Source of the DNA: Candidatus Kaiserbacteria bacterium
GTDB taxonomy: Bacteria > Patescibacteriota > Minisyncoccia > Phycocordibacterales > Phycocordibacteraceae
Assembly (NCBI GenBank): GCA_023264445.1
Contig: JAHFMN010000002.1
Coordinates: 142,720-206,719 of the forward strand
Direction of reading: 5' to 3'
Length of the DNA: 64,000 bases
Both the position numbers and the translations under genes were made by a program. Positions 34,537 to 48,244 of the stretch are shown one piece after another. A model generated the notes under the pieces. It was not told the origin of the DNA. It saw only the letters and a list, made by a program, of their open reading frames with translations, and did not search any database. The stretch's first letter is position 1. The number at the start of each line of letters is the position of its first letter.

Positions 34537-38299
<3,763 letters not shown>

Positions 38300-40093: not shown

Positions 40094-40684
40094 ATGCTGC
40101 AGCCGGGCAATCAGGCCAACGTCGAGTACTTCTTTCGCCTCCTCTACAATTGTTTCCATGGCGCGTGCTATGGCGGCACGTCGATCGGACTCCAGGAGTT
40201 CTCCGCGTGGCTCGCACATCTGTGGCTCTGGATTATCATCGTCGGGTACGCGCTTTCGGTCGCAGCGCTCTTCGGTGTCGTGTATACCACTGTGCGCCTC
40301 TTTGAGTTACGCAAGCGAGAAGAGGAGTTCTATAGCACTCTACTGATCACGCCGGAAGCTGCTGGCGGTATGCATCCGCGCTGGGAGCACATTCAGTCGC
40401 TTGTCGAGGGCTCGACTCAAAGTCAATGGCGCGAAGCGATTATCGAGGCCGATATCATGCTCGATGAAGTGCTTGGCAAGCGCGGGTACGCGGGCGATGG
40501 CGTCGGCGAGAAGCTCAAGAGCGCAGAGGAAGCAGAATTTGCCACGCTTCAAAACGCTTGGGATGCGCATAAAGTCCGCAATCAGATAGCACATCAAGGT
40601 TCTTCATTTGATCTTTCTGAAACGGTGGCGCGCCGCACCATCCAGCACTACGAGGCCGTCTTCCGTGAATTTAAAGTGATTTAG
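40094..40684 (+). CDS. membrane-anchored protein with C-terminal HEPN-like (R-x4-H) motif
   Basis: One or two N-terminal TM helices. C-terminal KVRNQIAHQG matches the HEPN Rx4-6H RNase motif. Assignment by motif only. Confidence 0.35.
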   Translation: MLQPGNQANVEYFFRLLYNCFHGACYGGTSIGLQEFSAWLAHLWLWIIIVGYALSVAALFGVVYTTVRLFELRKREEEFYSTLLITPEAAGGMHPRWEHIQSLVEGSTQSQWREAIIEADIMLDEVLGKRGYAGDGVGEKLKSAEEAEFATLQNAWDAHKVRNQIAHQGSSFDLSETVARRTIQHYEAVFREFKVI

Positions 40685-41045
40685 GTTTCGGTTCCTTTGA
40701 GAAAGTTCTTTTGCGATGACAATTGGCACAAACGAGCTCGCATTTCTGTATTTCCTGTTCTATAGCTTCGATACTTAGAACAGTGTGGGACCAACTCCCG
40801 ATATTAAATTTTTTGACCCCTTGACCGTCAACATGATCGAAATCCAGTACATAAGGAAATTCCCTTCCTAAAAAACCGCAATCAACACATGAGCGTGCTC
40901 TTTTGTATTGTTCAATAAATTCAGTCACCCGGTTCTTATTTCTGCGCACGTATGAGATGTGCCGCTCTTTATTTTTCGGATACCAGACTTCCTTCATATA
41001 CTTTGCGTGGTACTCTTTTCTTCGCACGGGATCTTTATGGGCCAT
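40671..41045 (-). CDS. HNH endonuclease
   Basis: HNH motif: CVDCG ... DFDHVDG ... CANCH (zinc-binding Cys plus catalytic His-Asn-His). AT-rich; overlaps the 3' end of the upstream gene convergently. Confidence 0.7.
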   Translation of the reverse strand: MAHKDPVRRKEYHAKYMKEVWYPKNKERHISYVRRNKNRVTEFIEQYKRARSCVDCGFLGREFPYVLDFDHVDGQGVKKFNIGSWSHTVLSIEAIEQEIQKCELVCANCHRKRTFSKEPKPKSL

Positions 41046-41185
41046 ACTCGAAGTTTAGCATCACTACCGAAATGGTAGGTTATGAATCCACAGACATTAG
41101 CAAGAGCTCCTACTCCCTAATCCTGTTGTATTCCAATTCTGTGAGTGGTACTCTGAGGAGGACGCTTCATCGGAAGCGTGATATA

Positions 41186-41507
41186 GCGGGGTAGAGGAGA
41201 GGTACCTCGGGAGGCTCATGTGGAAACGTGACCCTATCCGGTAACGGATAGCGGAAAAACTCTCTAAATTGCTGGAATACCGTTAGAGCTTCTCGTGCTA
41301 CAGCGTGATCCGAAAGGATGAGCGCGAACGCCTGAAAAACAAGAAGATTCGGCAATCAGCAGCCAAGTCTTCCGCCTTCGGCGGAAGAAAGGTTCAGAGA
41401 CTATAATGGGAGAATCCTTATGGGATTATGGTATAGTCCATTCCTGTTGGAAACAGCAGGTGTAAAAGAACCTCCAGACGCCGGTTCGATTCCGGCCCCC
41501 GCAACAC
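41186..41507 (+). ncRNA. ssrA: candidate tmRNA (ssrA)
   Basis: About 322 nt. 3' end GACGCCGGTTCGATTCCGGCCCCCGCA resembles the tmRNA tRNA-like domain (T-arm GGTTCGATTCC). The 5' GCGGGG pairs with the 3' CCCCGC to form an acceptor stem. CCA not encoded. Followed by a terminator. Tag reading frame not confidently identified. Confidence 0.45.
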
Positions 41508-41579
41508 GGTTGTGACGCCAGGAACCAGTACCGTCCCCCATTGGGACCAGTACAGTACCGACAGGCATCACGTACGCGA

Positions 41580-41612
41580 AAGCCGCTCGAAAGAGCGGCT
41601 TTCGCGTTACTT
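41580..41612 (+). terminator. rho-independent terminator after the tmRNA candidate
   Basis: aagccgctc-gaaa-gagcggctt followed by tcgcgtt. Confidence 0.5.
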
Positions 41613-41623
41613 GGAAAAGAGCG

Positions 41624-41980
41624 TTGAAATTTGGTAGTATAAAGACAATGGATGAATCTAATGAGGTCAAATTCAATCAAGAGCAGAAGCCTCCAAGAAA
41701 GAGCAATTCCTTCCTCTATTTAGCAATTATTTTGTTTGCGGCCGAGGCTGTTCTTGGTGTACTAGGTTTTGGTGGAGGCCCTCTTTTGATGTTTGGAGCT
41801 CTTATCGCCTTTACACTTTGGGCAACCAAACCTAAATCAAAAACACGTCGAGTTATAGTTTCGATTCTCACACTTCTGGTAGTTGTACTATTTATCAGTA
41901 TTTTCTCATCATTGCCAGTGGCACGTGAAAATGCGGAGGCAACGCAAGCAGCGAATTCGGCCCAACTTCCCGTTCAATAA
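41624..41980 (+). CDS. hypothetical small membrane protein (island cargo)
   Basis: 118-aa ORF with two TM helices, AT-rich. Confidence 0.35.
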   Translation: MKFGSIKTMDESNEVKFNQEQKPPRKSNSFLYLAIILFAAEAVLGVLGFGGGPLLMFGALIAFTLWATKPKSKTRRVIVSILTLLVVVLFISIFSSLPVARENAEATQAANSAQLPVQ

Positions 41981-41989
41981 AAATTTTCC

Positions 41990-42202
41990 GTGACAAATAA
42001 TTACTTAGAGATGATGCAGAAATTATGTCAGTGCAAGCATACCCGGATGATGCATTTCCATGGGTTCGCGCTCATTCCTGACGGGCAGGATCCATCGGCT
42101 ACCAAAAAGGATGCCGAGTGCCGTGCAGACAACTGCAATTGCCAGATTTACGATGCTATTGAGAAGGATGAGGATGGTACTGTATTGACCGACCTCGCCT
42201 AA
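41990..42202 (+). CDS. hypothetical small Cys/His-rich protein (island cargo)
   Basis: 70 aa with CQCKH ... C ... DNCNC, a possible zinc ribbon, followed by a hairpin terminator. Confidence 0.3.
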   Translation: MTNNYLEMMQKLCQCKHTRMMHFHGFALIPDGQDPSATKKDAECRADNCNCQIYDAIEKDEDGTVLTDLA

Positions 42203-42237
42203 GTAAAAGCCGGCCAAAAGGACGGCTTTTACGTGGG

Positions 42238-43020
42238 CTATCGCTGTGGTTTTTTGAACATGCCATGCTTGACCAAAATACTGAAGGCGTTATCGACCAC
42301 ATCTTTTTCTCGATTGTCACTCACGTAGCCATAAATTTCTCCATAGAAGCTAAGAAGTTCATCAATGAGTGCCAGAACGTGCGTGGTGTGTGCTGCATAT
42401 AACCTTGCGCCGTTTATTTTCTGGTATTGAGGAACAGTGGAAGCGAAATCTCCCCATGAAGTGTTGTATCCAATGAGAGTATCCAAAATTCTGTGGTCGG
42501 ATAGGTGTGCTAGGCCATTCAACTCACCATAATGGCGACTGCCTTTCCATGGCGCATACCTTGCATTGGGGGTAATACCATCTTTTCGTTTTCCTTGCCT
42601 AATCTCGGATAGTGCACTTATGGCTTCGAATTCCTGTCGAATCAGAGCACCAGCTTGTACATACTGGCCTTTTAATATGGACTGTTCACACAGTGATAAT
42701 CCTTGTATTAGCGCAGCTGTAATTACGAATCTCCTACTGGTCGATTCATTACTAGTCGGTATTTTTTGACCAGAGTGTTCTTCAAGGATGGAACCAATAA
42801 CGCCAAGGAGCAGGGTATGAGCCGCATGCAATTCCTGCATATCTGCGAGGCTCTCTCGCAGATTGAATGATTGTGCTTGTTCCTGGTGCTTGGTGTAGTT
42901 TTTCCCAATAGCTATGTATGCAGCATCTATAAAATAATGCGGGCCGTCAAAAGGTCTTTCCCTATGCTGATGAAGGGCATACCAACGGTACTTTATTTCC
43001 TCAAGTAGTCGTCCGAACAT
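42238..43020 (-). CDS. hypothetical protein (island cargo; no recognisable motif)
   Basis: 260-aa ORF with good coding signal and no motif I recognise. Confidence 0.45.
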   Translation of the reverse strand: MFGRLLEEIKYRWYALHQHRERPFDGPHYFIDAAYIAIGKNYTKHQEQAQSFNLRESLADMQELHAAHTLLLGVIGSILEEHSGQKIPTSNESTSRRFVITAALIQGLSLCEQSILKGQYVQAGALIRQEFEAISALSEIRQGKRKDGITPNARYAPWKGSRHYGELNGLAHLSDHRILDTLIGYNTSWGDFASTVPQYQKINGARLYAAHTTHVLALIDELLSFYGEIYGYVSDNREKDVVDNAFSILVKHGMFKKPQR

Positions 43021-43202
43021 ACAGGTAGTTTACCGCCAATTGCCGGTACTGTACCGCCGCCCTAGTTGGCCGATTGGAAGCGAGCGAAAAGCATTCAAAT
43101 CATTGGAAAGCTACCCATACCGGCTCCCGTCACTAAAGAGGGAAGGAGAGGTGCGAAAGAACCTTTGGATTGCTTGTAGTGGCGGGTACAGTACCGTCTC
43201 GG

Positions 43203-43240
43203 GCAACAAGAAATGAAAACACTCGGCCTCGCGCCGAGTG
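43203..43240. terminator. hairpin terminator-like element
   Basis: aaaacactcggc-ctcgc-gccgagtgtttt perfect stem flanked by A/T runs. Confidence 0.45.
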
Positions 43241-43399
43241 TTTTCATTTCTCTGCGTGGAGAGACGGAATCGAACCGGGAAGGGGTCGGGGAACGGGAGT
43301 TCCCCGTGGAGGAAGGCAGCGAGCGGAGCGAGCGCTGGAAAACCGTGGGTTTCCAGAGAGTGAGATAGCGAAGCGTCCGGCCCCCGCAACAAGTACGAA

Positions 43400-43437
43400 A
43401 AACACCGGCTTTGTGCCGGTGTTTTTCATTACGGTAT
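43400..43437 (-). terminator. rho-independent terminator downstream of the 2-hydroxyacid dehydrogenase gene
   Basis: aaaaacaccggc-tttg-tgccggtgttttt; symmetric A/T runs. Confidence 0.55.
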
Positions 43438-44436
43438 GGTGACGATATTCGACGGTACCCCTTTCTCAAATGAAAGGATGTTTTCGGTCGTCGTGTCGAG
43501 TATTCGCTGTATCGCCTCCATCGTGTTAAATGCAGCGTGCGGCGTCACGATGACGCGCGGGTGGTCGATGAGATAATGGTCGGCGACCACAGTCCGCACC
43601 TTCTCGTCCTCTGGCTTTGTGGAAAGAAACACTGCTTCATCGGCAAGGCCGTTCTCTTCTTCTAGTACATCGAGGCCTGCACCCGCGACAATACCAGACT
43701 TGAGCGCCTCGACGAGCGCTGCAGTCTCGACGACGGCGCCGCGTGCGGTATTGATGAGATAGGAACCTTTCTTGAACGAGCTGATATTTTTCGCGTTGAT
43801 GAGATGGTGCGTGTGCTCGTTGTACGGGACGTGAATGGTCACGATGTCGGACGTGGCGAGAAGCTCTTCAAGGGAGAGATAGGGGAAATCGAGCGTGTGG
43901 GCAAGCTCCGCATTAGGGAATGCGTCAAAACCGACGACCTTCATATTGAATCCTTTCGCCATGCGGATGACGTGCGCACCGATGTGGCCAGTACCGACAA
44001 CCCCGATGGTTTTCCCAGCGAGATCAAAACCACGCAGTCCGGCAGGAGAGAATATCCCATCCTCGCGCACGCGCTCGTCTGCATCAATGATCCGTCTTGA
44101 GAGCGCGAGCAGGAGCGCGAAGGTGAATTCGGCGACGGTGTTTTCGCCATAGAAGGGAACGGTTGCAACCGAGATGCCGCGCGCCTTCGCCGCCGCGAGG
44201 TCGATGTGGTCGTACCCGGTGGAGCGGGTCGCGATGAGTTTCAATTTCGGGAAGCGCGCGAGCTCCGGCTCGCCGATAGGGGAGTCTATAAAAATGCATA
44301 GCCCTTCCGCATCTGGGTCTGCAAGATCCGGGAAGGCCCCAAGCGTCCCTTCATGAAAAACAATCTCCGCACCAGTGAGTTTCGTGCGGATGTACCCCTC
44401 CTCCCATGCCTCGCTCCCAAAGTAATGAATCTTCAT
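43429..44436 (-). CDS. D-isomer-specific 2-hydroxyacid dehydrogenase (D-lactate/glycerate dehydrogenase-like)
   Basis: NAD-binding GVVGTGHIGAHV, catalytic R/E/H triad context (TARG ... HAAF). Confidence 0.85.
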   Translation of the reverse strand: MKIHYFGSEAWEEGYIRTKLTGAEIVFHEGTLGAFPDLADPDAEGLCIFIDSPIGEPELARFPKLKLIATRSTGYDHIDLAAAKARGISVATVPFYGENTVAEFTFALLLALSRRIIDADERVREDGIFSPAGLRGFDLAGKTIGVVGTGHIGAHVIRMAKGFNMKVVGFDAFPNAELAHTLDFPYLSLEELLATSDIVTIHVPYNEHTHHLINAKNISSFKKGSYLINTARGAVVETAALVEALKSGIVAGAGLDVLEEENGLADEAVFLSTKPEDEKVRTVVADHYLIDHPRVIVTPHAAFNTMEAIQRILDTTTENILSFEKGVPSNIVTIP

Positions 44437-44585: not shown

Positions 44586-45119
44586 ATGGCGCTCAAATCA
44601 GCGAATCAACCGATCCGCTGGAAAGAGCGAGTCGGCATCATGGCCGTCGGCCACGGTTTCAAGCAGGGAGAGGAGTTTTTCTTCGACTACATGCTTTACC
44701 CGGCCGTCATAGCCTGGCTGGGTGCGATAGTCGGCGGCCTTGCCCTCACCGTACTCTCGGCCTCCGTCTGCTATCTCTACATTCTCTTTTACGACTGGTC
44801 CAAAAAGGACTGGCTCGGTCTCGAGCTTCTGAAGGAGATGCGGGATGGAGGCGAGCATCACGGCCATATCGCACGCTTCATCCAGCGCATAGCTCGTAAG
44901 AGCGATTGGCTGGCATTCCTTGTCTTTTCTTGCTACACGGATCCGTTCATGACGACCGTGTACATGCGAAAGGGCGTTGGAGCGTACGATGGACTCTCCC
45001 GGAGAGATTGGAAAATCTTCTGGGCAAGCGTGCTTGTCGCAAACCTTTGGTGGACGACGATGATGGCGCTTGCAGTCGAGGCCGTTCGCTCAATTCTTGC
45101 TTGGCTTGGCTTCACTTAA
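44586..45119 (+). CDS. hypothetical membrane protein
   Basis: 177 aa, three or four TM helices, preceded by a good SD (ACAGGAGGT). Confidence 0.45.
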   Translation: MALKSANQPIRWKERVGIMAVGHGFKQGEEFFFDYMLYPAVIAWLGAIVGGLALTVLSASVCYLYILFYDWSKKDWLGLELLKEMRDGGEHHGHIARFIQRIARKSDWLAFLVFSCYTDPFMTTVYMRKGVGAYDGLSRRDWKIFWASVLVANLWWTTMMALAVEAVRSILAWLGFT

Positions 45120-45189
45120 TCGGCGGCGGTGTTAACGCACTGCCGCCGGTTTTCTTTTCCTCTGTTTTTGCTACGATATCTTTGTACTT

Positions 45190-45531
45190 ATGAAATCGGG
45201 GAATTGGCTTTTATGGGCCCTGCTCTTATCAGTTATAACTGTCTGCGGCGCAAGCGCATACAAGTATTTTGTTACTGAAAACTATTCTTTTTTTGTTGAA
45301 GCGGCTTGCGATTCTATAAGGCAAGAGTGTTACCAGAGAGACTGTTCCAACCCGGACGATTGTCCGCCAAACGGCCTTTCTGTGTACAAAGTATTCGAGC
45401 TTCCGGCCTCTGAATTCAAGAATTGTTCCGATAACTCATGCGTCAATATTTGCCCTTCCAGGGAGCAGCAGTGCATTGAAATCCCCTGTAATTCCCAAAG
45501 CGATATATCCTGCATAGGACCACAATCATGA
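45190..45531 (+). CDS. secreted Cys-rich small protein (10 Cys), function unknown
   Basis: Signal peptide MKSGNWLLWALLLSVITVCGASA, then ten cysteines in about 85 aa. Confidence 0.45.
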   Translation: MKSGNWLLWALLLSVITVCGASAYKYFVTENYSFFVEAACDSIRQECYQRDCSNPDDCPPNGLSVYKVFELPASEFKNCSDNSCVNICPSREQQCIEIPCNSQSDISCIGPQS

Positions 45532-46346
45532 CCCATCCTCTCTCACACATCTCATTCTCATCCACAGGGGTCATACGATTCGATACGTTTGATGACCTCT
45601 ATACCGAACCACAACTCGCTCTTGCGGAGCTCCGTAAGCGGCGGAAAGACGCACAGCTCACCGATCTAGTCCATAGAGGATTGAATGGTTTTGCAAAGGA
45701 ATTTTTAAAAAGACATAGTCGTCCGCGCGCAGTGCTCTTTCGCCAGCTCGCTACCCCGACTCACGAAACTATCCGTTTCTTACGGTTGGCAAAGAATTTA
45801 GGACTCGACCCGCTTATACTGGAATACCTTGGAGATAAATTCGTCAGCACAGGCAATCGATATAAGCGTTCTCTCGGCAAAATGCCGATTTATCAGTATA
45901 CAGGTGCCGATGGGAGAGATATGTTTCGCTACAAGTCCGTATGCGACTTCAATCGATTTACGGGAAAGGCAATTTCTAGCGTAGAGTGCCATAGCGGAGA
46001 ATCGCTCGTGGCGCTTCATCACCGTCTACTGCAGTCTGTCACTAAACTTGACCCAAGGAAATATTGTATAGATGGGACGAAGTGGTTCCGAGGCGTCGGC
46101 AAAAAAGCAGAAAATTATTATGAAAATTTCCTTCGCCTATTTATACGAGACGCTGTTTTATTTGAGAGCTTCGTCCCCTTCAAAGCGGAGGGTTCGTTCA
46201 CTAATAGCATCATAGTCCCATCCTTCAAAGCTGTCTTTTCGCAGTATGGTCTCCGGCCACTTATCGTTCGTTTACTGCCTGACGTCGACGAGACACGTTT
46301 ATTTTGGGATTCTTTTCCAAAGAAAGTAGAGCAATATACACCCTAA
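45528..46346 (+). CDS. hypothetical protein
   Basis: 272-aa ORF overlapping the upstream stop by 4 nt; lower GC than the genome average. Confidence 0.45.
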   Translation: MTHPLSHISFSSTGVIRFDTFDDLYTEPQLALAELRKRRKDAQLTDLVHRGLNGFAKEFLKRHSRPRAVLFRQLATPTHETIRFLRLAKNLGLDPLILEYLGDKFVSTGNRYKRSLGKMPIYQYTGADGRDMFRYKSVCDFNRFTGKAISSVECHSGESLVALHHRLLQSVTKLDPRKYCIDGTKWFRGVGKKAENYYENFLRLFIRDAVLFESFVPFKAEGSFTNSIIVPSFKAVFSQYGLRPLIVRLLPDVDETRLFWDSFPKKVEQYTP

Positions 46347-46349
46347 GCT

Positions 46350-47966
46350 ATGGACATCAACACTTGTCTTGCTACTACAGACAGCGTCCGAAATCTTGCG
46401 ATGTATTCGCATCTCGTTCCGGCGCTCGCCACTCTTGTTCTTGGAACGTTTGCATTCACCAAAACGCAAGACCGTCTCAAGGGCTTCGCTTTCTTCACGT
46501 TCGTCCTCATATTTGCAGCATGGCTTGTCGGTGATTTCATCGTTTGGGTATCCAATAGCTATCAATTGGTCGCCACGTTCTGGGCCCCTCTGGATTATTT
46601 TGAAATAGCATTCTTCCTCTCCCTTCTTTTCTTCGTGTTCATAACCTTTTTCCCCAATAAACCCCGCTGGGGAATGTGTCTCCTCATACTCGCGGCTGTT
46701 GTAGTCCCTTTCGCTCTTACGGTAATGGGAAATTCTCTTCTTGAATTCAATCAGCCCCAATGTGAAATGCTGGAAAATGCATTTCTTACCCAATACAAAC
46801 TCATATGCCAGGGAGTCATCCTCGCCCTCATCCTCGTTATGTCCGTGTGGTCTTTCTTACGGGCGAAAGTTACTGAAGAGCGAATCCGAGCAGTACTGGT
46901 CGGAGTGTCCATCGTCCTCTTTATGGGAATCTTTGCTGGTAGCGAATATCTCTCATCAGTTACGTACGTATATGAAATCAATCTGTATGCGCTCTTCACC
47001 CTCCCGATTTTTGTCCTTATTCTGACCATTGCCATTACCAGCTATGGTACGTTCCGCCTTGGAGATACGGCCGTGAAGGCTCTATTTTATGTATTTCTCA
47101 CGCTTGCAGGTTCACAATTCTTTTCGGTAACGAATCTTACGGATTTCCTGATTTCGGCGATGAGTTTTGGGACCATTCTCATCATGGGCATCATGTTGTT
47201 TATCAGTAATGAACGGGAAATAAAGATACGTCATGAAGTAGAGCGCCTGGCCCATGAGCTCGAGCAGACGAATACGCGGCAGGAGACACTCATTCATTTC
47301 ATTGGGCATGAGGTCAAAGGGTTCCTAACCAAAGATGAAGGGGCGTTTGCCGCGCTTGTCGATGGCGACTTTGGGAAGCTCGAAGACGGTATGAAGCCGT
47401 TCGTGGAATCCGCGCTCGCGCAATCGCGTGACGGTGTGCGTTCGGTGACAGATATTCTGACGGCCGCCAATCAGAAGAAGGGAACGATAAGCTATGCAAA
47501 GGAATCCTTCGACCTGAAACAACTTGCGATGGATGCTATCGAGAAAGCGAAGTCGATGGCGGGGGAGAAGGGTCTCACGCTCTCCTTCTCGGCGGACGAG
47601 GCCGGAGCTCCGTATACCATCAGCGGAGACAAAGCAAAAATCAGCGATAATGTCTTACGAAATATCATTGAGAATTCCATACATTACACACCTTCGGGCT
47701 CCATCGCTGTCTCGCTCAAGAAAGAGAACGGCAAAATCGTATTTGCCGTGAAGGACACTGGTGTCGGTATCACAGAAGAAGATAAGAAATTGCTCTTTAC
47801 CGAGGGTGGTCATGGCAAAGAATCACAGAAGATAAACGTGCATTCCACGGGATACGGTCTCTATATCGCAAAGAACATCGTCGAAGCGCACGGGGGCACT
47901 ATCCGTGCCGAATCAGAAGGGGCAGGCAAGGGCTCGACGTTTGTTGTTGAACTACCGGCGCAATAA
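46350..47966 (+). CDS. sensor histidine kinase with N-terminal 7-8 TM sensor domain
   Basis: Many N-terminal TM helices, HisKA H-box (FIGHEVKGFL) and HATPase_c N/G1/G2 boxes (NSIHYT ... DTGVGI ... GYGLYIAKNIVEAHGG). Confidence 0.8.
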   Translation: MDINTCLATTDSVRNLAMYSHLVPALATLVLGTFAFTKTQDRLKGFAFFTFVLIFAAWLVGDFIVWVSNSYQLVATFWAPLDYFEIAFFLSLLFFVFITFFPNKPRWGMCLLILAAVVVPFALTVMGNSLLEFNQPQCEMLENAFLTQYKLICQGVILALILVMSVWSFLRAKVTEERIRAVLVGVSIVLFMGIFAGSEYLSSVTYVYEINLYALFTLPIFVLILTIAITSYGTFRLGDTAVKALFYVFLTLAGSQFFSVTNLTDFLISAMSFGTILIMGIMLFISNEREIKIRHEVERLAHELEQTNTRQETLIHFIGHEVKGFLTKDEGAFAALVDGDFGKLEDGMKPFVESALAQSRDGVRSVTDILTAANQKKGTISYAKESFDLKQLAMDAIEKAKSMAGEKGLTLSFSADEAGAPYTISGDKAKISDNVLRNIIENSIHYTPSGSIAVSLKKENGKIVFAVKDTGVGITEEDKKLLFTEGGHGKESQKINVHSTGYGLYIAKNIVEAHGGTIRAESEGAGKGSTFVVELPAQ

Positions 47967-47970
47967 AAAC

Positions 47971-48047
47971 TGCGCGAGGGACGGGACTTGAACCCGCAAC
48001 CTCCGCCGTGACAGGGCGGCGCTCTAACCAGTTGAGCTACCCCCGCA
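47971..48047 (-). tRNA. tRNA-Asp (GUC)
   Basis: Reverse complement GCGGGGGTAGCTCAACTGGTTAGAGCGCCGCCCTGTCACGGCGGAGGTTGCGGGTTCAAGTCCCGTCCCTCGCG. Anticodon loop CTGTCAC; CCA not encoded. Confidence 0.85.
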
Positions 48048-48171
48048 AGCGAGGACGAGAACAGAAGTGTACTTCCGTTCTCTCCGAGCGCGGCGGGGGC
48101 AAGCTTTGCTTACCACCGCCGTATCCTTGCGGATAAATGCATCCTATCAAAATCTCTCAAAAAAGTCGTGT

Positions 48172-48244
48172 GCCGGCGGGTGGAGTCGCGCCACCGTCTA
48201 GGGTTTATGAGTCCCTCGTTCTAACTCTTGAACTACACCGGCAA
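48172..48244 (-). tRNA. tRNA-Met/Ile2 (CAU), elongator type
   Basis: Reverse complement GCCGGTGTAGTTCAAGAGTTAGAACGAGGGACTCATAAACCCT... Acceptor GCCGGTG/CGCCGGC with G1-C72; anticodon loop CTCATAA. Confidence 0.7.

Follow-up and report, generated by a model that had tools for sequence, protein, structure and literature searches.

A probable recombinase-less cassette, of a family associated with large serine recombinases, between a tRNA gene and its terminator in a Parcubacteria bacterium

The staphylococcal cassette chromosome elements (SCC, including SCCmec, together with the pseudo-SCC) are generally known to be inserted by recombinases of the large serine recombinase (LSR) family, CcrAB or CcrC, at a single conserved site, the 3' end of the housekeeping gene rlmH (orfX), which remains intact. 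The present analysis deals with a comparable arrangement in the window, that is, the whole 64,000-nucleotide stretch of contig JAHFMN010000002.1 under analysis, where 1,702 bp of foreign DNA (41507-43208) lie directly after a tRNA(CAU) gene. This segment is, in our judgement, rather probably a recombinase-less member of a family of LSR cassettes, inserted between the terminal GCAACA of the tRNA and the terminator of that tRNA, in the manner of a pseudo-SCC. The cassette family shares with the SCC the formation of tandem composite arrays, a highly variable cargo, and the presence of many members that retain their ends without a recombinase. It differs from the SCC in its target, which is the end of a tRNA gene rather than a protein gene, and in its host, a bacterium of the candidate phyla radiation (CPR). 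The end modules of the family (100-170 nt) are also unrelated in sequence to those of the SCC, its LSR is a single gene instead of a ccrA/ccrB pair, and it is known here from sequence alone.

Two further kinds of system are relevant to the comparison. The tDNA islands of the Islander type are also integrated at the 3' end of a tRNA gene that is preserved, with lower-GC cargo and a downstream repeat of the tRNA end, whereas the present locus lacks a tyrosine integrase, has only 6 nt common to its junctions, and owes the downstream copy of the tRNA end to a pre-existing structured element. Integron arrays, and the clusters of attC sites lacking integron integrases (CALINs), resemble the locus in their small, mostly recombinase-less cassettes, which are parted by conserved elements, some of them structured, that are similar to recombination sites. 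In contrast with these systems, the cassettes described here lack both IntI and the attC consensus, and they have a long conserved left module and an association with a serine recombinase. The related loci and contigs that were compared with the window are designated by L-numbers (L006, L016 and so on).

The tRNA gene and the limits of the insertion

The gene at the left of the insertion, which an earlier note on this DNA had identified as the tmRNA gene (ssrA), is a tRNA gene split by a group I intron. No tmRNA is detected by ARAGORN, and the Rfam tmRNA model matches only 18 nt of the T-arm (14.8 bits, with the gathering threshold at 47), which led to the rejection of this identification. A complete group I intron is found at 41208-41460 (Rfam Intron_gpI, 73.1 bits, threshold 50, E=1.5e-17, model positions 1-253), and both the intron mode of ARAGORN and in-silico splicing give a 72-nt tRNA-Met(cat). 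ARAGORN -i reports the intron as i(36,249), that is, 249 nt placed directly after the anticodon (position 36), with U as the last base of the 5' exon and G as the last base of the intron. An intron-less tRNA(cat) of 72-74 nt lies right after the gene p196 in approximately 45 loci, and an intron occupies the same site of tRNA(CAU) in L007, L018, and L019. Bacterial initiator tRNAs are marked by a mismatch at 1:72, the pair A11:U24, and three G:C pairs at the base of the anticodon stem. The window tRNA has an A1xA72 mismatch and A11:U24, and only two consecutive G:C pairs in its anticodon stem (GGAGG/CCUCC), in which the L009 orthologue has three, and the L011 orthologue presents the canonical C1xA72; the gene is thus initiator-like, and is treated here as a putative initiator-type tRNA.

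The window forms part of a metagenome contig of 212 kb, ENA ERZ27279942. When gatA was used as the anchor, the 80 nearest species-level genomes were all from the Parcubacteria/Paceibacterota, with 74% protein identity in the top one, and the host is a Parcubacteria/Paceibacterota (CPR) bacterium. The order gatA-p196-tRNA(CAU) is kept in approximately 60 of these 80 loci, mostly with an intron-less tRNA, and none of the 80 encodes homologues of the three genes carried by the insertion (ORF118, ORF70, and ORF260). The terminator follows the tRNA directly in L007 and L008, the closest of the relatives in which the downstream dehydrogenase gene is present. The interval is therefore not core sequence. 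The ancestral order would have been gatA, p196, tRNA(CAU), terminator, a structured element matched to the tRNA end, terminator, and dehydrogenase.

An exact direct repeat of 16 nt, TCCGGCCCCCGCAACA, had been interpreted in the earlier note as the att duplication that brackets an island of about 1.9 kb. The repeat itself is real, with copies at 41491-41506 and 43376-43391 (the positions 41492 and 43366 given previously were off by 1 and 10 nt, respectively). These two are the only ones in the window, where no extra copies are found at two mismatches or fewer, and two copies arise in none of 100 shuffles. Foreign DNA is also present, as proposed, at the 3' end of a tRNA-type gene, in a site-specific position, and its left boundary is indeed at 41506/41507. 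The right boundary, however, is at 43208/43209, 170 nt before the right 16-mer, so the pair does not bound the insertion, which measures 1,702 bp.

The right edge is placed at 43208 because of three independent observations: a step in the GC content, a terminator, and the restoration of a conserved spacing. The lower-GC block that had been reported is confirmed for 41507-43208 (0.46, against 0.56-0.58 in the flanks), but it does not reach the right repeat, since the final ~180 nt are host-like, with a GC content of 0.58 at 43209-43391, and also at 43209-43428. The conserved right module ends in GGGCAACA, and is followed by a terminator (43209-43251) like the one found after this tRNA in cassette-free relatives, and similar to the trailer that comes after the right 16-mer. 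The distance from the initiator-type tRNA to the start of the structured element is 39-45 nt in relatives, and the deletion of 41507-43208 leaves 42-44 nt in the window. The right 16-mer thus lies in DNA of host GC content, parted from 43208 by a terminator of the native type, and does not abut the inserted DNA, unlike the displaced gene fragment of a tDNA island. A repeat of the tRNA end alone does not amount to an att duplication. On a broader scale, the GC content is 0.41-0.48 from approximately 40600 to 43150 against 0.55-0.60 around it, such that the low-GC zone extends upstream over an HNH endonuclease gene. The contigs of other samples end at the edges of the cassette, and breaks are recorded at 41505 and at 43258-43311.

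The last 6 nt of the left 16-mer, GCAACA (41501-41506), are the only sequence common to the three kinds of junction: attL, ...CCCCCGCAACA/CGGTTG; attR, ...CTCGGGCAACA/AGAAATG; and the attP-like junctions of L016 and other loci, ...CACGGGCAACA/CGGTTG. The attL of the window would hence be 41506/41507, and its attR, 43208/43209. This short common core, with no long duplication, is the pattern expected of LSR elements, in which integration needs no long duplication. Two other interpretations of the region were discarded. A cassette lying within the loop of a conserved post-tRNA hairpin was dropped once nhmmer had revealed the left and right modules as separate conserved ends, and the identification of 43021-43260 as a decayed duplicate of the 3' part of the intron with the tRNA 3' half was abandoned on a local alignment score of 27, against 21.7 +/- 3.4 in the shuffles, with a maximum of 34.

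End modules, tandem arrays, and the associated recombinase

The inserted DNA is bounded by two conserved modules, a left end module (Lmod) of approximately 100 nt and a right end module of class B (Rmod). Lmod recurs after the same tRNA in L009, L016, L031, and L078, with extra copies further downstream in several loci, and its first 27 nt (41507-41533), CGGTTGTGACGCCAGGAACCAGTACCG, are invariant among the copies. A scan of the JGI metagenomes with a 24-nt left-end signature recovered 84 contigs, and the signature is preceded by ...C[CG][CG][CG]CAACA in every copy. In total, there are 120 copies of Lmod in 87 loci, with the true tRNA 3' half on the left at 43 junctions, and one of several recurring right-end classes at 71. 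The Lmod copies of the window and L016 are 93.5% identical over 108 nt, whereas gatA is 68% identical in amino acids, and the DNA of the p196 3' end is 73% identical. Module identity so far above that of the hosts points to either mobility or very strong constraint.

The class-B Rmod is represented by 13 distinct homologous copies with a mean column identity of 82% in their alignment. It is followed by Lmod in nine of the 13, and by a terminator of the tRNA-trailer type, which corresponds to attR, in the other four, that is, the window (AGAAATGAAAACAC...), L175, L132, and L158. The Rmod of the window is homologous (nhmmer) to two segments of L016, each located right after a cargo ORF and directly before an Lmod, and L016 is thus organized in tandem cassettes, with the tRNA followed by Lmod-ORF437-Rmod, Lmod-ORF327-Rmod, and a further Lmod. 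Tandem insertion at one site, with recombinase-less members that keep their ends, as in the SCC arrays, is found in L016, L103, L117, L138, L169, and other loci. The arrays of L016 (13686-16800), L103, L117, L138, and L169 comprise two to three cassettes with unrelated cargo and contiguous Rmod/Lmod junctions, which are attP-like.

The 31 complete cassettes range from 0.16 to 7.2 kb (median ~1.75 kb), usually with one to three ORFs and mostly without an LSR, and the window cassette, with its 1.7 kb and three ORFs, is typical of this set. The cargo of the other cassettes includes a DNA methylase, Fic, Ham1, RsgA, and NYN domain proteins, and many proteins without a family match. Partial or chimeric modules also occur, such as Lmod positions 14-102 fused to other modules, and several of the right-end classes contain T-arm-like hairpins. 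No known non-coding RNA of Rfam was matched by Rmod or Lmod, and a simple scan for promoters and terminators performed no better than on shuffled sequences. The possibility that Rmod is a structured RNA was rejected, given an RNAalifold energy of -9.5 kcal/mol with a covariation term of -0.15 over the 13 class-B modules. The term "decayed", which had been applied to the island, is only partly appropriate. Neither end module has been damaged, and their identity with the copies of distant hosts is 83-94%, so the window cassette may still be mobilisable in trans.

The three GTAC palindromes noticed previously are present as GGTACWGTACC at 41549 (with one mismatch), 43045, and 43185, the last of which had been misplaced at 43176, and three or more such sequences are found in none of 100 shuffles. 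Both Rmod palindromes are kept in their arms across the 13 class-B modules, with a central base that varies among A, T, G, and C. By inspection of the sequence, the distal Rmod palindrome is in register with the T-loop region of the tRNA, GGTTCGATTCC, at 14-24 nt from the junction, and the GTACC of the invariant 27-mer is ~22-26 nt from the junction in the inverted orientation. This is the geometry that would be expected for the outer motifs of a serine-integrase site of ~50 bp, which makes the interpretation of the palindromes as recombinase-binding sites reasonable. They are, then, conserved parts of the end modules and probably protein-binding sites.

No recombinase is encoded in the interval or anywhere else in the window (Pfam; tblastn with the LSR), in accordance with the lack of an integrase noted earlier. 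In L151, a 462-aa protein encoded 3.4 kb from Lmod is an LSR, with matches to Resolvase (4.7e-21), Recombinase (3.6e-14), and Zn_ribbon_recom (7.4e-9). LSRs of this type, with 79-95% identity (tblastn), are found in L096, L092, L130, L149, L119, L147, L103, L122, and L138, with partial copies in L133, L123, and L088. The LSR is thus located beside Lmod in 10 loci, including L151, and in partial form in three more, always on the strand opposite Lmod and at 0.35-5 kb from it. In L138, the LSR is separated by 9 kb from a class-B Rmod contiguous with an Lmod, a 1.3-kb cassette, and a second Rmod/Lmod junction, and in L147, an Lmod, an ORF, an N-terminally truncated LSR, and an Rmod-type end are found within 2.6 kb. 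A further LSR, with 64% identity, is encoded in L014 at 1.5 kb downstream of this tRNA, and four other genomes have more distant LSRs in the vicinity of the tRNA cluster. An LSR is encoded by the full-length members L151, L096, L092, L119, and L122, and not by the window cassette. By association, the same pair of end modules would enclose the LSR in the full-length elements, from which the small cassettes would derive by lacking the recombinase.

Given this, site-specific recombination would have placed the cassette exactly between the terminal GCAACA and the tRNA's own terminator. The LSR would be the enzyme that acts on these ends, with a crossover presumably within GCAACA, and the GTAC palindromes and the 27-mer are putative LSR half-sites or accessory binding sites. 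The candidate attP is the ~60 bp around GGGTACAGTACCGACACGGGCAACA/CGGTTGTGACGCCAGGAACCAGTACCG, and the candidate attB, the last 30 nt of the tRNA with its native trailer. The family would target this tRNA end in many Parcubacteria, its full-length members encoding the LSR, and the window copy, with only three small cargo genes, could move only by means of an LSR supplied in trans.

Other features accompany the LSR gene. The full LSR elements exceed 10 kb. A conserved sequence of ~70 nt (TGCATTGTGGTTACTTGCTAAT..CCCTACCACAATGGATGACGCAACCCGCGC..GAGTCCAGACC) is located upstream of the LSR gene in L096, L092, L119, L138, and L151, and is followed by genes that, as read from the sequence, resemble a Dam-like methyltransferase or a MerR-type helix-turn-helix (HTH) protein, the latter a possible candidate for an excisionase or recombination directionality factor (RDF).

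The structured element and the competing explanations

Beyond the native terminator, the window contains a reduced copy of a structured element, the arms of which reproduce the end of the adjacent tRNA. Larger relatives (L027, L011, L065, L158, and others), in some cases in cassette-free genomes, are found after the terminator, 39-45 nt downstream of the orthologous tRNA. These elements are 100-190 nt in size, with a 5' arm that is the reverse complement, and a 3' arm that is the direct copy, of the final ~11-27 nt of the neighbouring tRNA; in the larger ones, the start, TGTTGCGGGGG, is the reverse complement of the end, CCCCCGCAACA. The elongator tRNA-Met and tRNA-Asp are followed by copies as well, with arms that match the 3' end of the respective tRNA. 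The exact match of an arm to its own neighbouring tRNA is 11-19 nt in 11 of 14 cases, and mostly 7 nt or less for unrelated tRNAs.

The full-size element folds into a closing helix similar to an acceptor stem plus T-stem, a 9-bp hairpin, and two to three inner hairpins (z = -6 to -7.6), and four element sequences yield 39 consensus pairs, of which 11 have compensatory changes. A covariance model, R1, recovers 17 copies in the 80 genome loci. In the R1 alignment, which is fitted to the model, 89% of the cells pair, against 62% when shuffled and 37-50% with the partners slid, and 35 of the 39 pairs present double changes, values reached in none of 500 shuffles. Elements of the R1 type thus have a strongly conserved structure and a variable sequence, and correspond to no Rfam family. 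The left arm of the window copy includes an inverted copy of the T-loop and T-stem of the tRNA, with 14 exact nt (43265-43278), and the element is homologous to the L065 and L079 copies (nhmmer). Hairpin 1 has been lost, however, with z = -0.4, and the copy is undetected by R1, so its probable membership of the family is based on the arm architecture, the position, and the similarity to L065 and L079.

The element can apparently serve as the left partner of a cassette, because its 3' arm is directly followed by Lmod in L027, L111, and L099. In the window, the site after the 3' arm is unoccupied, and the 16-mer leads to the terminator at 43397-43427, the two together being homologous (blastn, 83-85%) to the tRNA 3' end with its trailer in L007 (5643-5695) and L058 (12241-12298). 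The contig L006 (Logan SRR14366791), which represents an almost identical strain, has one mismatch with the window in 1.5 kb, and 99.9% identity over the dehydrogenase gene, but diverges right after the left arm (window 43277-43283). On its left are tRNA-Phe(GAA) and then GCTTGGGGCC, which is the 3' end of tRNA-Phe in reverse complement and continues into the core of the window element. The arm thus matches the adjacent tRNA here too, and the junction suggests a recombination event between a copy of the element linked to tRNA-Phe and another linked to tRNA-Met.

The element is reminiscent of tRNA-like structures, minihelix mimics, and the miniature inverted-repeat transposable elements (MITE-like elements with terminal inverted repeats), in that it has a coaxial helix similar to an acceptor stem plus T-stem, a length of 100-190 nt, and inverted terminal arms. 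Unlike these, its arms copy the end of the adjacent tRNA and change with it (initiator Met, elongator Met, Asp, and Phe), while the core is conserved and the location is always just after the tRNA terminator. No literature was found on LSR/tRNA cassette arrays in the CPR or on elements matched to tRNA ends, which, with incomplete coverage of the literature, is absence of evidence only. We put forward, as a tentative idea that is more likely to prove wrong than right, that these sequences constitute an undescribed class of structured elements after tRNA terminators in the Parcubacteria (initiator-type Met, elongator Met, Asp, and apparently Phe), with a minihelix mimic around a conserved core. 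They may be a tRNA-mimic RNA, related to processing, charging, or a decoy function, and/or a self-renewing secondary landing pad (pseudo-attB) for the LSR cassettes.

The arms of this element bear directly on the interpretation of the locus as a classic tRNA island of a tyrosine integrase, which would span 41507-43375, with a duplicated 16-bp identity block, the right 16-mer as the displaced tRNA end, and the subsequent loss of the integrase. The exact 16-mer runs from the T-loop to the 3' end, as in the T-loop class of tDNA islands, reportedly defined by Williams 2002 and Islander, and the right 16-mer with its terminator is similar to the tRNA end and trailer of L007 and L058, as noted above. 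This explanation is nevertheless very improbable, given that the right 16-mer is the arm of an element found after this and other tRNAs in cassette-free relatives, always matched to the upstream tRNA, and that 43209-43391 is at host GC. In addition, the right module borders on a terminator at 43208, an arrangement shared with three other loci, the canonical spacing is restored only by the removal of 41507-43208, and the sole recombinase associated with the modules is of the serine type, with no Pfam integrase match among the ORFs of the window. An integron-like system, in which the structured, imperfectly palindromic elements of the cassette 3' ends would act as attC in the form of folded single-stranded DNA and the tRNA end as attI, with a recombinase encoded elsewhere that inserts and shuffles cassettes devoid of promoters, and the LSR as mere cargo, is also unlikely, although less so. 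It would account for the tandem arrays of cassettes of one to three genes parted by conserved junction elements of 100-270 nt, for the T-arm-like hairpins of the right-end classes and the structure of the R1-type element, and for the lack of a recombinase in most cassettes, including that of the window. However, no IntI-like gene is seen beside any array (the upstream genes of the window being HNH, p196, and gatA), the class-B right module of the window has neither conserved structure nor covariation, and the left module of 100 nt with its 27-mer has no counterpart in integrons. The ends, by inspection of the sequence, also do not fit the R''/R' consensus (RYYYAAC/GTTRRRY), and the presence of the same LSR family beside Lmod in at least 13 loci, with 79-95% identity, is hard to see as random cargo.

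It is scarcely more plausible than a tyrosine-integrase island that no mobile element is involved at all, and that the interval between the tRNA and the dehydrogenase gene is simply prone to recombination, with repeats at the tRNA genes driving homologous or illegitimate events, duplications, and inversions, and genes gathering passively. The tRNA genes near p196 frequently differ in order or orientation among the relatives, L006 has the appearance of recombination between two copies of the structured element, and partial or chimeric modules exist. Against passive gathering, on the other hand, are modules that are near-identical between hosts with ~68% identical proteins, base-precise junctions in more than 110 cases, the return of the same cargo families in different cassettes and hosts, and a dedicated recombinase family associated with the modules. 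The interpretation as an LSR cassette, which we prefer, also has a number of points that weigh against it. Lmod, an intact LSR, and a right module were not seen together on one contig, both ends of the elements with an LSR being found on different contigs and the LSR of L147 being truncated at its N-terminus, and no excised circle, attP form, or same-species empty site was observed. The tandem Rmod/Lmod junctions are not predicted by a simple attP x attB chemistry, because LSRs normally leave attL and attR unrecombined in the absence of a directionality factor. The dyad symmetry around GCAACA is only modest, and the modules, at 100 and 170 nt, exceed the usual length of LSR half-sites. The serine type is the only recombinase that recurs with the modules, although the tyrosine recombinases of these loci were not screened systematically. 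With regard to the vehicle of transfer, no copy of the left-end 24-mer exists in IMG/VR, and a phage origin is thus unsupported.

Cargo, neighbouring features, and implications

The coordinates of the features are compiled in Table 1.

Table 1. Features of the locus and of related copies (positions refer to the window unless a locus is named).
Feature	Position	Strand	Details
HNH endonuclease gene, free-standing, 124 aa	40671-41045	-	PHROGs HNH E=2.8e-23; Pfam HNH weak; GC 0.41
tRNA(CAU) gene	41185-41505	+	5' exon 41185-41219, intron 41220-41468, 3' exon 41469-41505
Left 16-mer	41491-41506	+	T-stem 3' strand, acceptor 3' strand, discriminator and CA of the tRNA
Lmod (left end module, P'-arm-like)	41507-41609	+	27-mer CGGTTGTGACGCCAGGAACCAGTACCG 41507-41533; AGTACAGTACC 41549-41559; hairpin 41574-41607
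ORF118, small membrane protein	41624-41980	+	public gene calls start at 41648, 110 aa
ORF70, small Cys/His protein	41990-42202	+	invariant C-x-C-x-H-x-R-x2-H ... C-x4-C-x-C
ORF260, all-helical protein of a small unannotated family	42238-43020	-	weakly HEPN-like fold
Rmod (class-B right end module, P-arm-like)	43040-43208	+	palindromes GGTACTGTACC 43045-43055, GGTACAGTACC 43185-43195; end GGGCAACA 43201-43208
Native terminator of the tRNA (candidate B' side of the original attachment site)	43209-43251	+	inverted repeat, 19-bp stem
Structured element, reduced copy	43252-43391	+	left arm 43253-43278; right arm 43376-43391 (right 16-mer)
Bidirectional terminator	43397-43427		inverted repeat; shared with the dehydrogenase gene
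Dehydrogenase gene	43429-44436	-	shares the bidirectional terminator
Copies of the element in other loci	L027:12232-12399; L011:5087-5244; L065:4315-4479; L054, L058, L053 and others		after tRNA terminators

The three ORFs reported for the interval are genuine genes, each with homologues elsewhere. ORF118, which had been described as a protein with two transmembrane segments, has two to three hydrophobic segments, and its homologues, with 70-75% identity, are found within other cassettes of L175-L177; no significant family match was obtained in Pfam, PADLOC, or PHROGs. ORF70, which is presumably zinc-binding on the basis of its Cys/His pattern, has homologues in the cassettes of L151, L156, and L175, and 19 representative clusters among 1.8 billion proteins, with no Pfam family. 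Its AF2 model, with a pLDDT of 55, was unreliable and was not used. ORF70 and its relatives (P0038-P0055) form a rare small Cys/His domain, to which the forms of 110-160 aa add an N-terminal CxxC...C..C segment similar to a zinc ribbon, and no Pfam domain was found in these N-terminal extensions. HEPN proteins are defined by a four-helix fold with an R-x4-6-H motif, and the fold of ORF260 is only weakly HEPN-like. An assignment of ORF260 to DUF5677 was discarded (hhalign probability of 0.2%), and the sequence search of the PDB returned only spurious cytochrome matches. The PADLOC defence models gave no significant match for any of the three proteins; the small defence or addiction module suggested in the earlier note is possible, as is a defence or toxin role of ORF260.

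Homologues of all three cargo genes, recovered by protein search alone, are located in cassettes bounded by Lmod and Rmod, with other partners (L175-L178, L151, and L156), and ORF118 and ORF70 are adjacent again in L175. Because these cassettes combine the homologues with different partners, the cargo is seen as a set of independent genes rather than a fixed three-gene module.

The HNH gene lies just upstream of the intron-containing tRNA, on the opposite strand; it points away from this tRNA, and has an overlap with the end of p196. Its homologues adjoin an intron-containing tRNA in L018, L019, and L153, and L007 has the intron without the HNH gene. The gene is probably linked to the mobility of the intron, outside the cassette, and may code for a homing endonuclease that is associated with the intron without being part of it. 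Group I introns in the tRNA genes of the Patescibacteria, a phylum in which approximately 40% of the genomes carry group I introns, have been described recently, in a study that screened ORFs only within introns longer than 500 bp (PMC13011429). The intron of the window is of this known kind, and its 249 nt in the anticodon loop of tRNA(CAU) are similar to the introns of the cyanobacterial tRNA-fMet and tRNA-Leu and to those of the Patescibacteria. It differs from them in its insertion after anticodon position 36, and in the location of the HNH gene outside the intron on the opposite strand. When introns are allowed, a misplaced intron boundary leads ARAGORN to label several intron-containing orthologues of tRNA(CAU) as tRNA-Ser(tga), tRNA-Leu(caa), or tRNA-Glu(ttc); the loci concerned are L014, L016, L023, L053, L078, L021, L045, L065, and L072. 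This is an annotation pitfall for CPR genomes, in which an intron-split tRNA can also pass for a fragment of a tmRNA.

Two other parts of the window present features of their own. A second stretch of lower GC content (0.44-0.48) is found at 45100-47200, between the dehydrogenase gene and an inverted tRNA-Met/tRNA-Asp pair (47972-48242), and contains the genes of a Cys-rich protein of 113 aa and a protein of 272 aa, both without a Pfam match, and of a 538-aa HATPase_c protein. In relatives, the tRNA-Met/tRNA-Asp pair comes directly after the first tRNA(CAU), and for this reason the whole interval up to the pair may also be accessory. At 35647-36271, self-similar segments of ~245-400 nt, with 77-82% identity and offsets in multiples of ~120-250 nt, are located in a 583-aa gene upstream of the DNA ligase gene and beside pilin-like (N_methyl) genes, which indicates an internal tandem repeat within a protein-coding gene.

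On the interpretation that we prefer, the cassette would work much like an SCC or pseudo-SCC. LSRs aimed at a short conserved tRNA end, with candidate attP and attB sites of ~50 bp, would be of practical interest as tools for genome integration. If the structured element is functional, it would represent a new kind of tRNA mimic tied to the ends of tRNA genes, and if it does act as a landing pad, this would explain the growth of the tandem arrays even though LSR integration destroys attB.

Little is known of the mobile elements of the CPR bacteria, or Patescibacteria, or of the routes by which these organisms, with their tiny genomes, exchange genes. The cassettes described here are widespread in the Parcubacteria, with more than 110 junctions on ~90 contigs from groundwater and sediment metagenomes, and the system apparently uses an LSR to load accessory genes beside an initiator-type tRNA. 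These genes include those of restriction-modification, Fic proteins, transporters, and nucleotide-housekeeping enzymes, together with many others without a known role.

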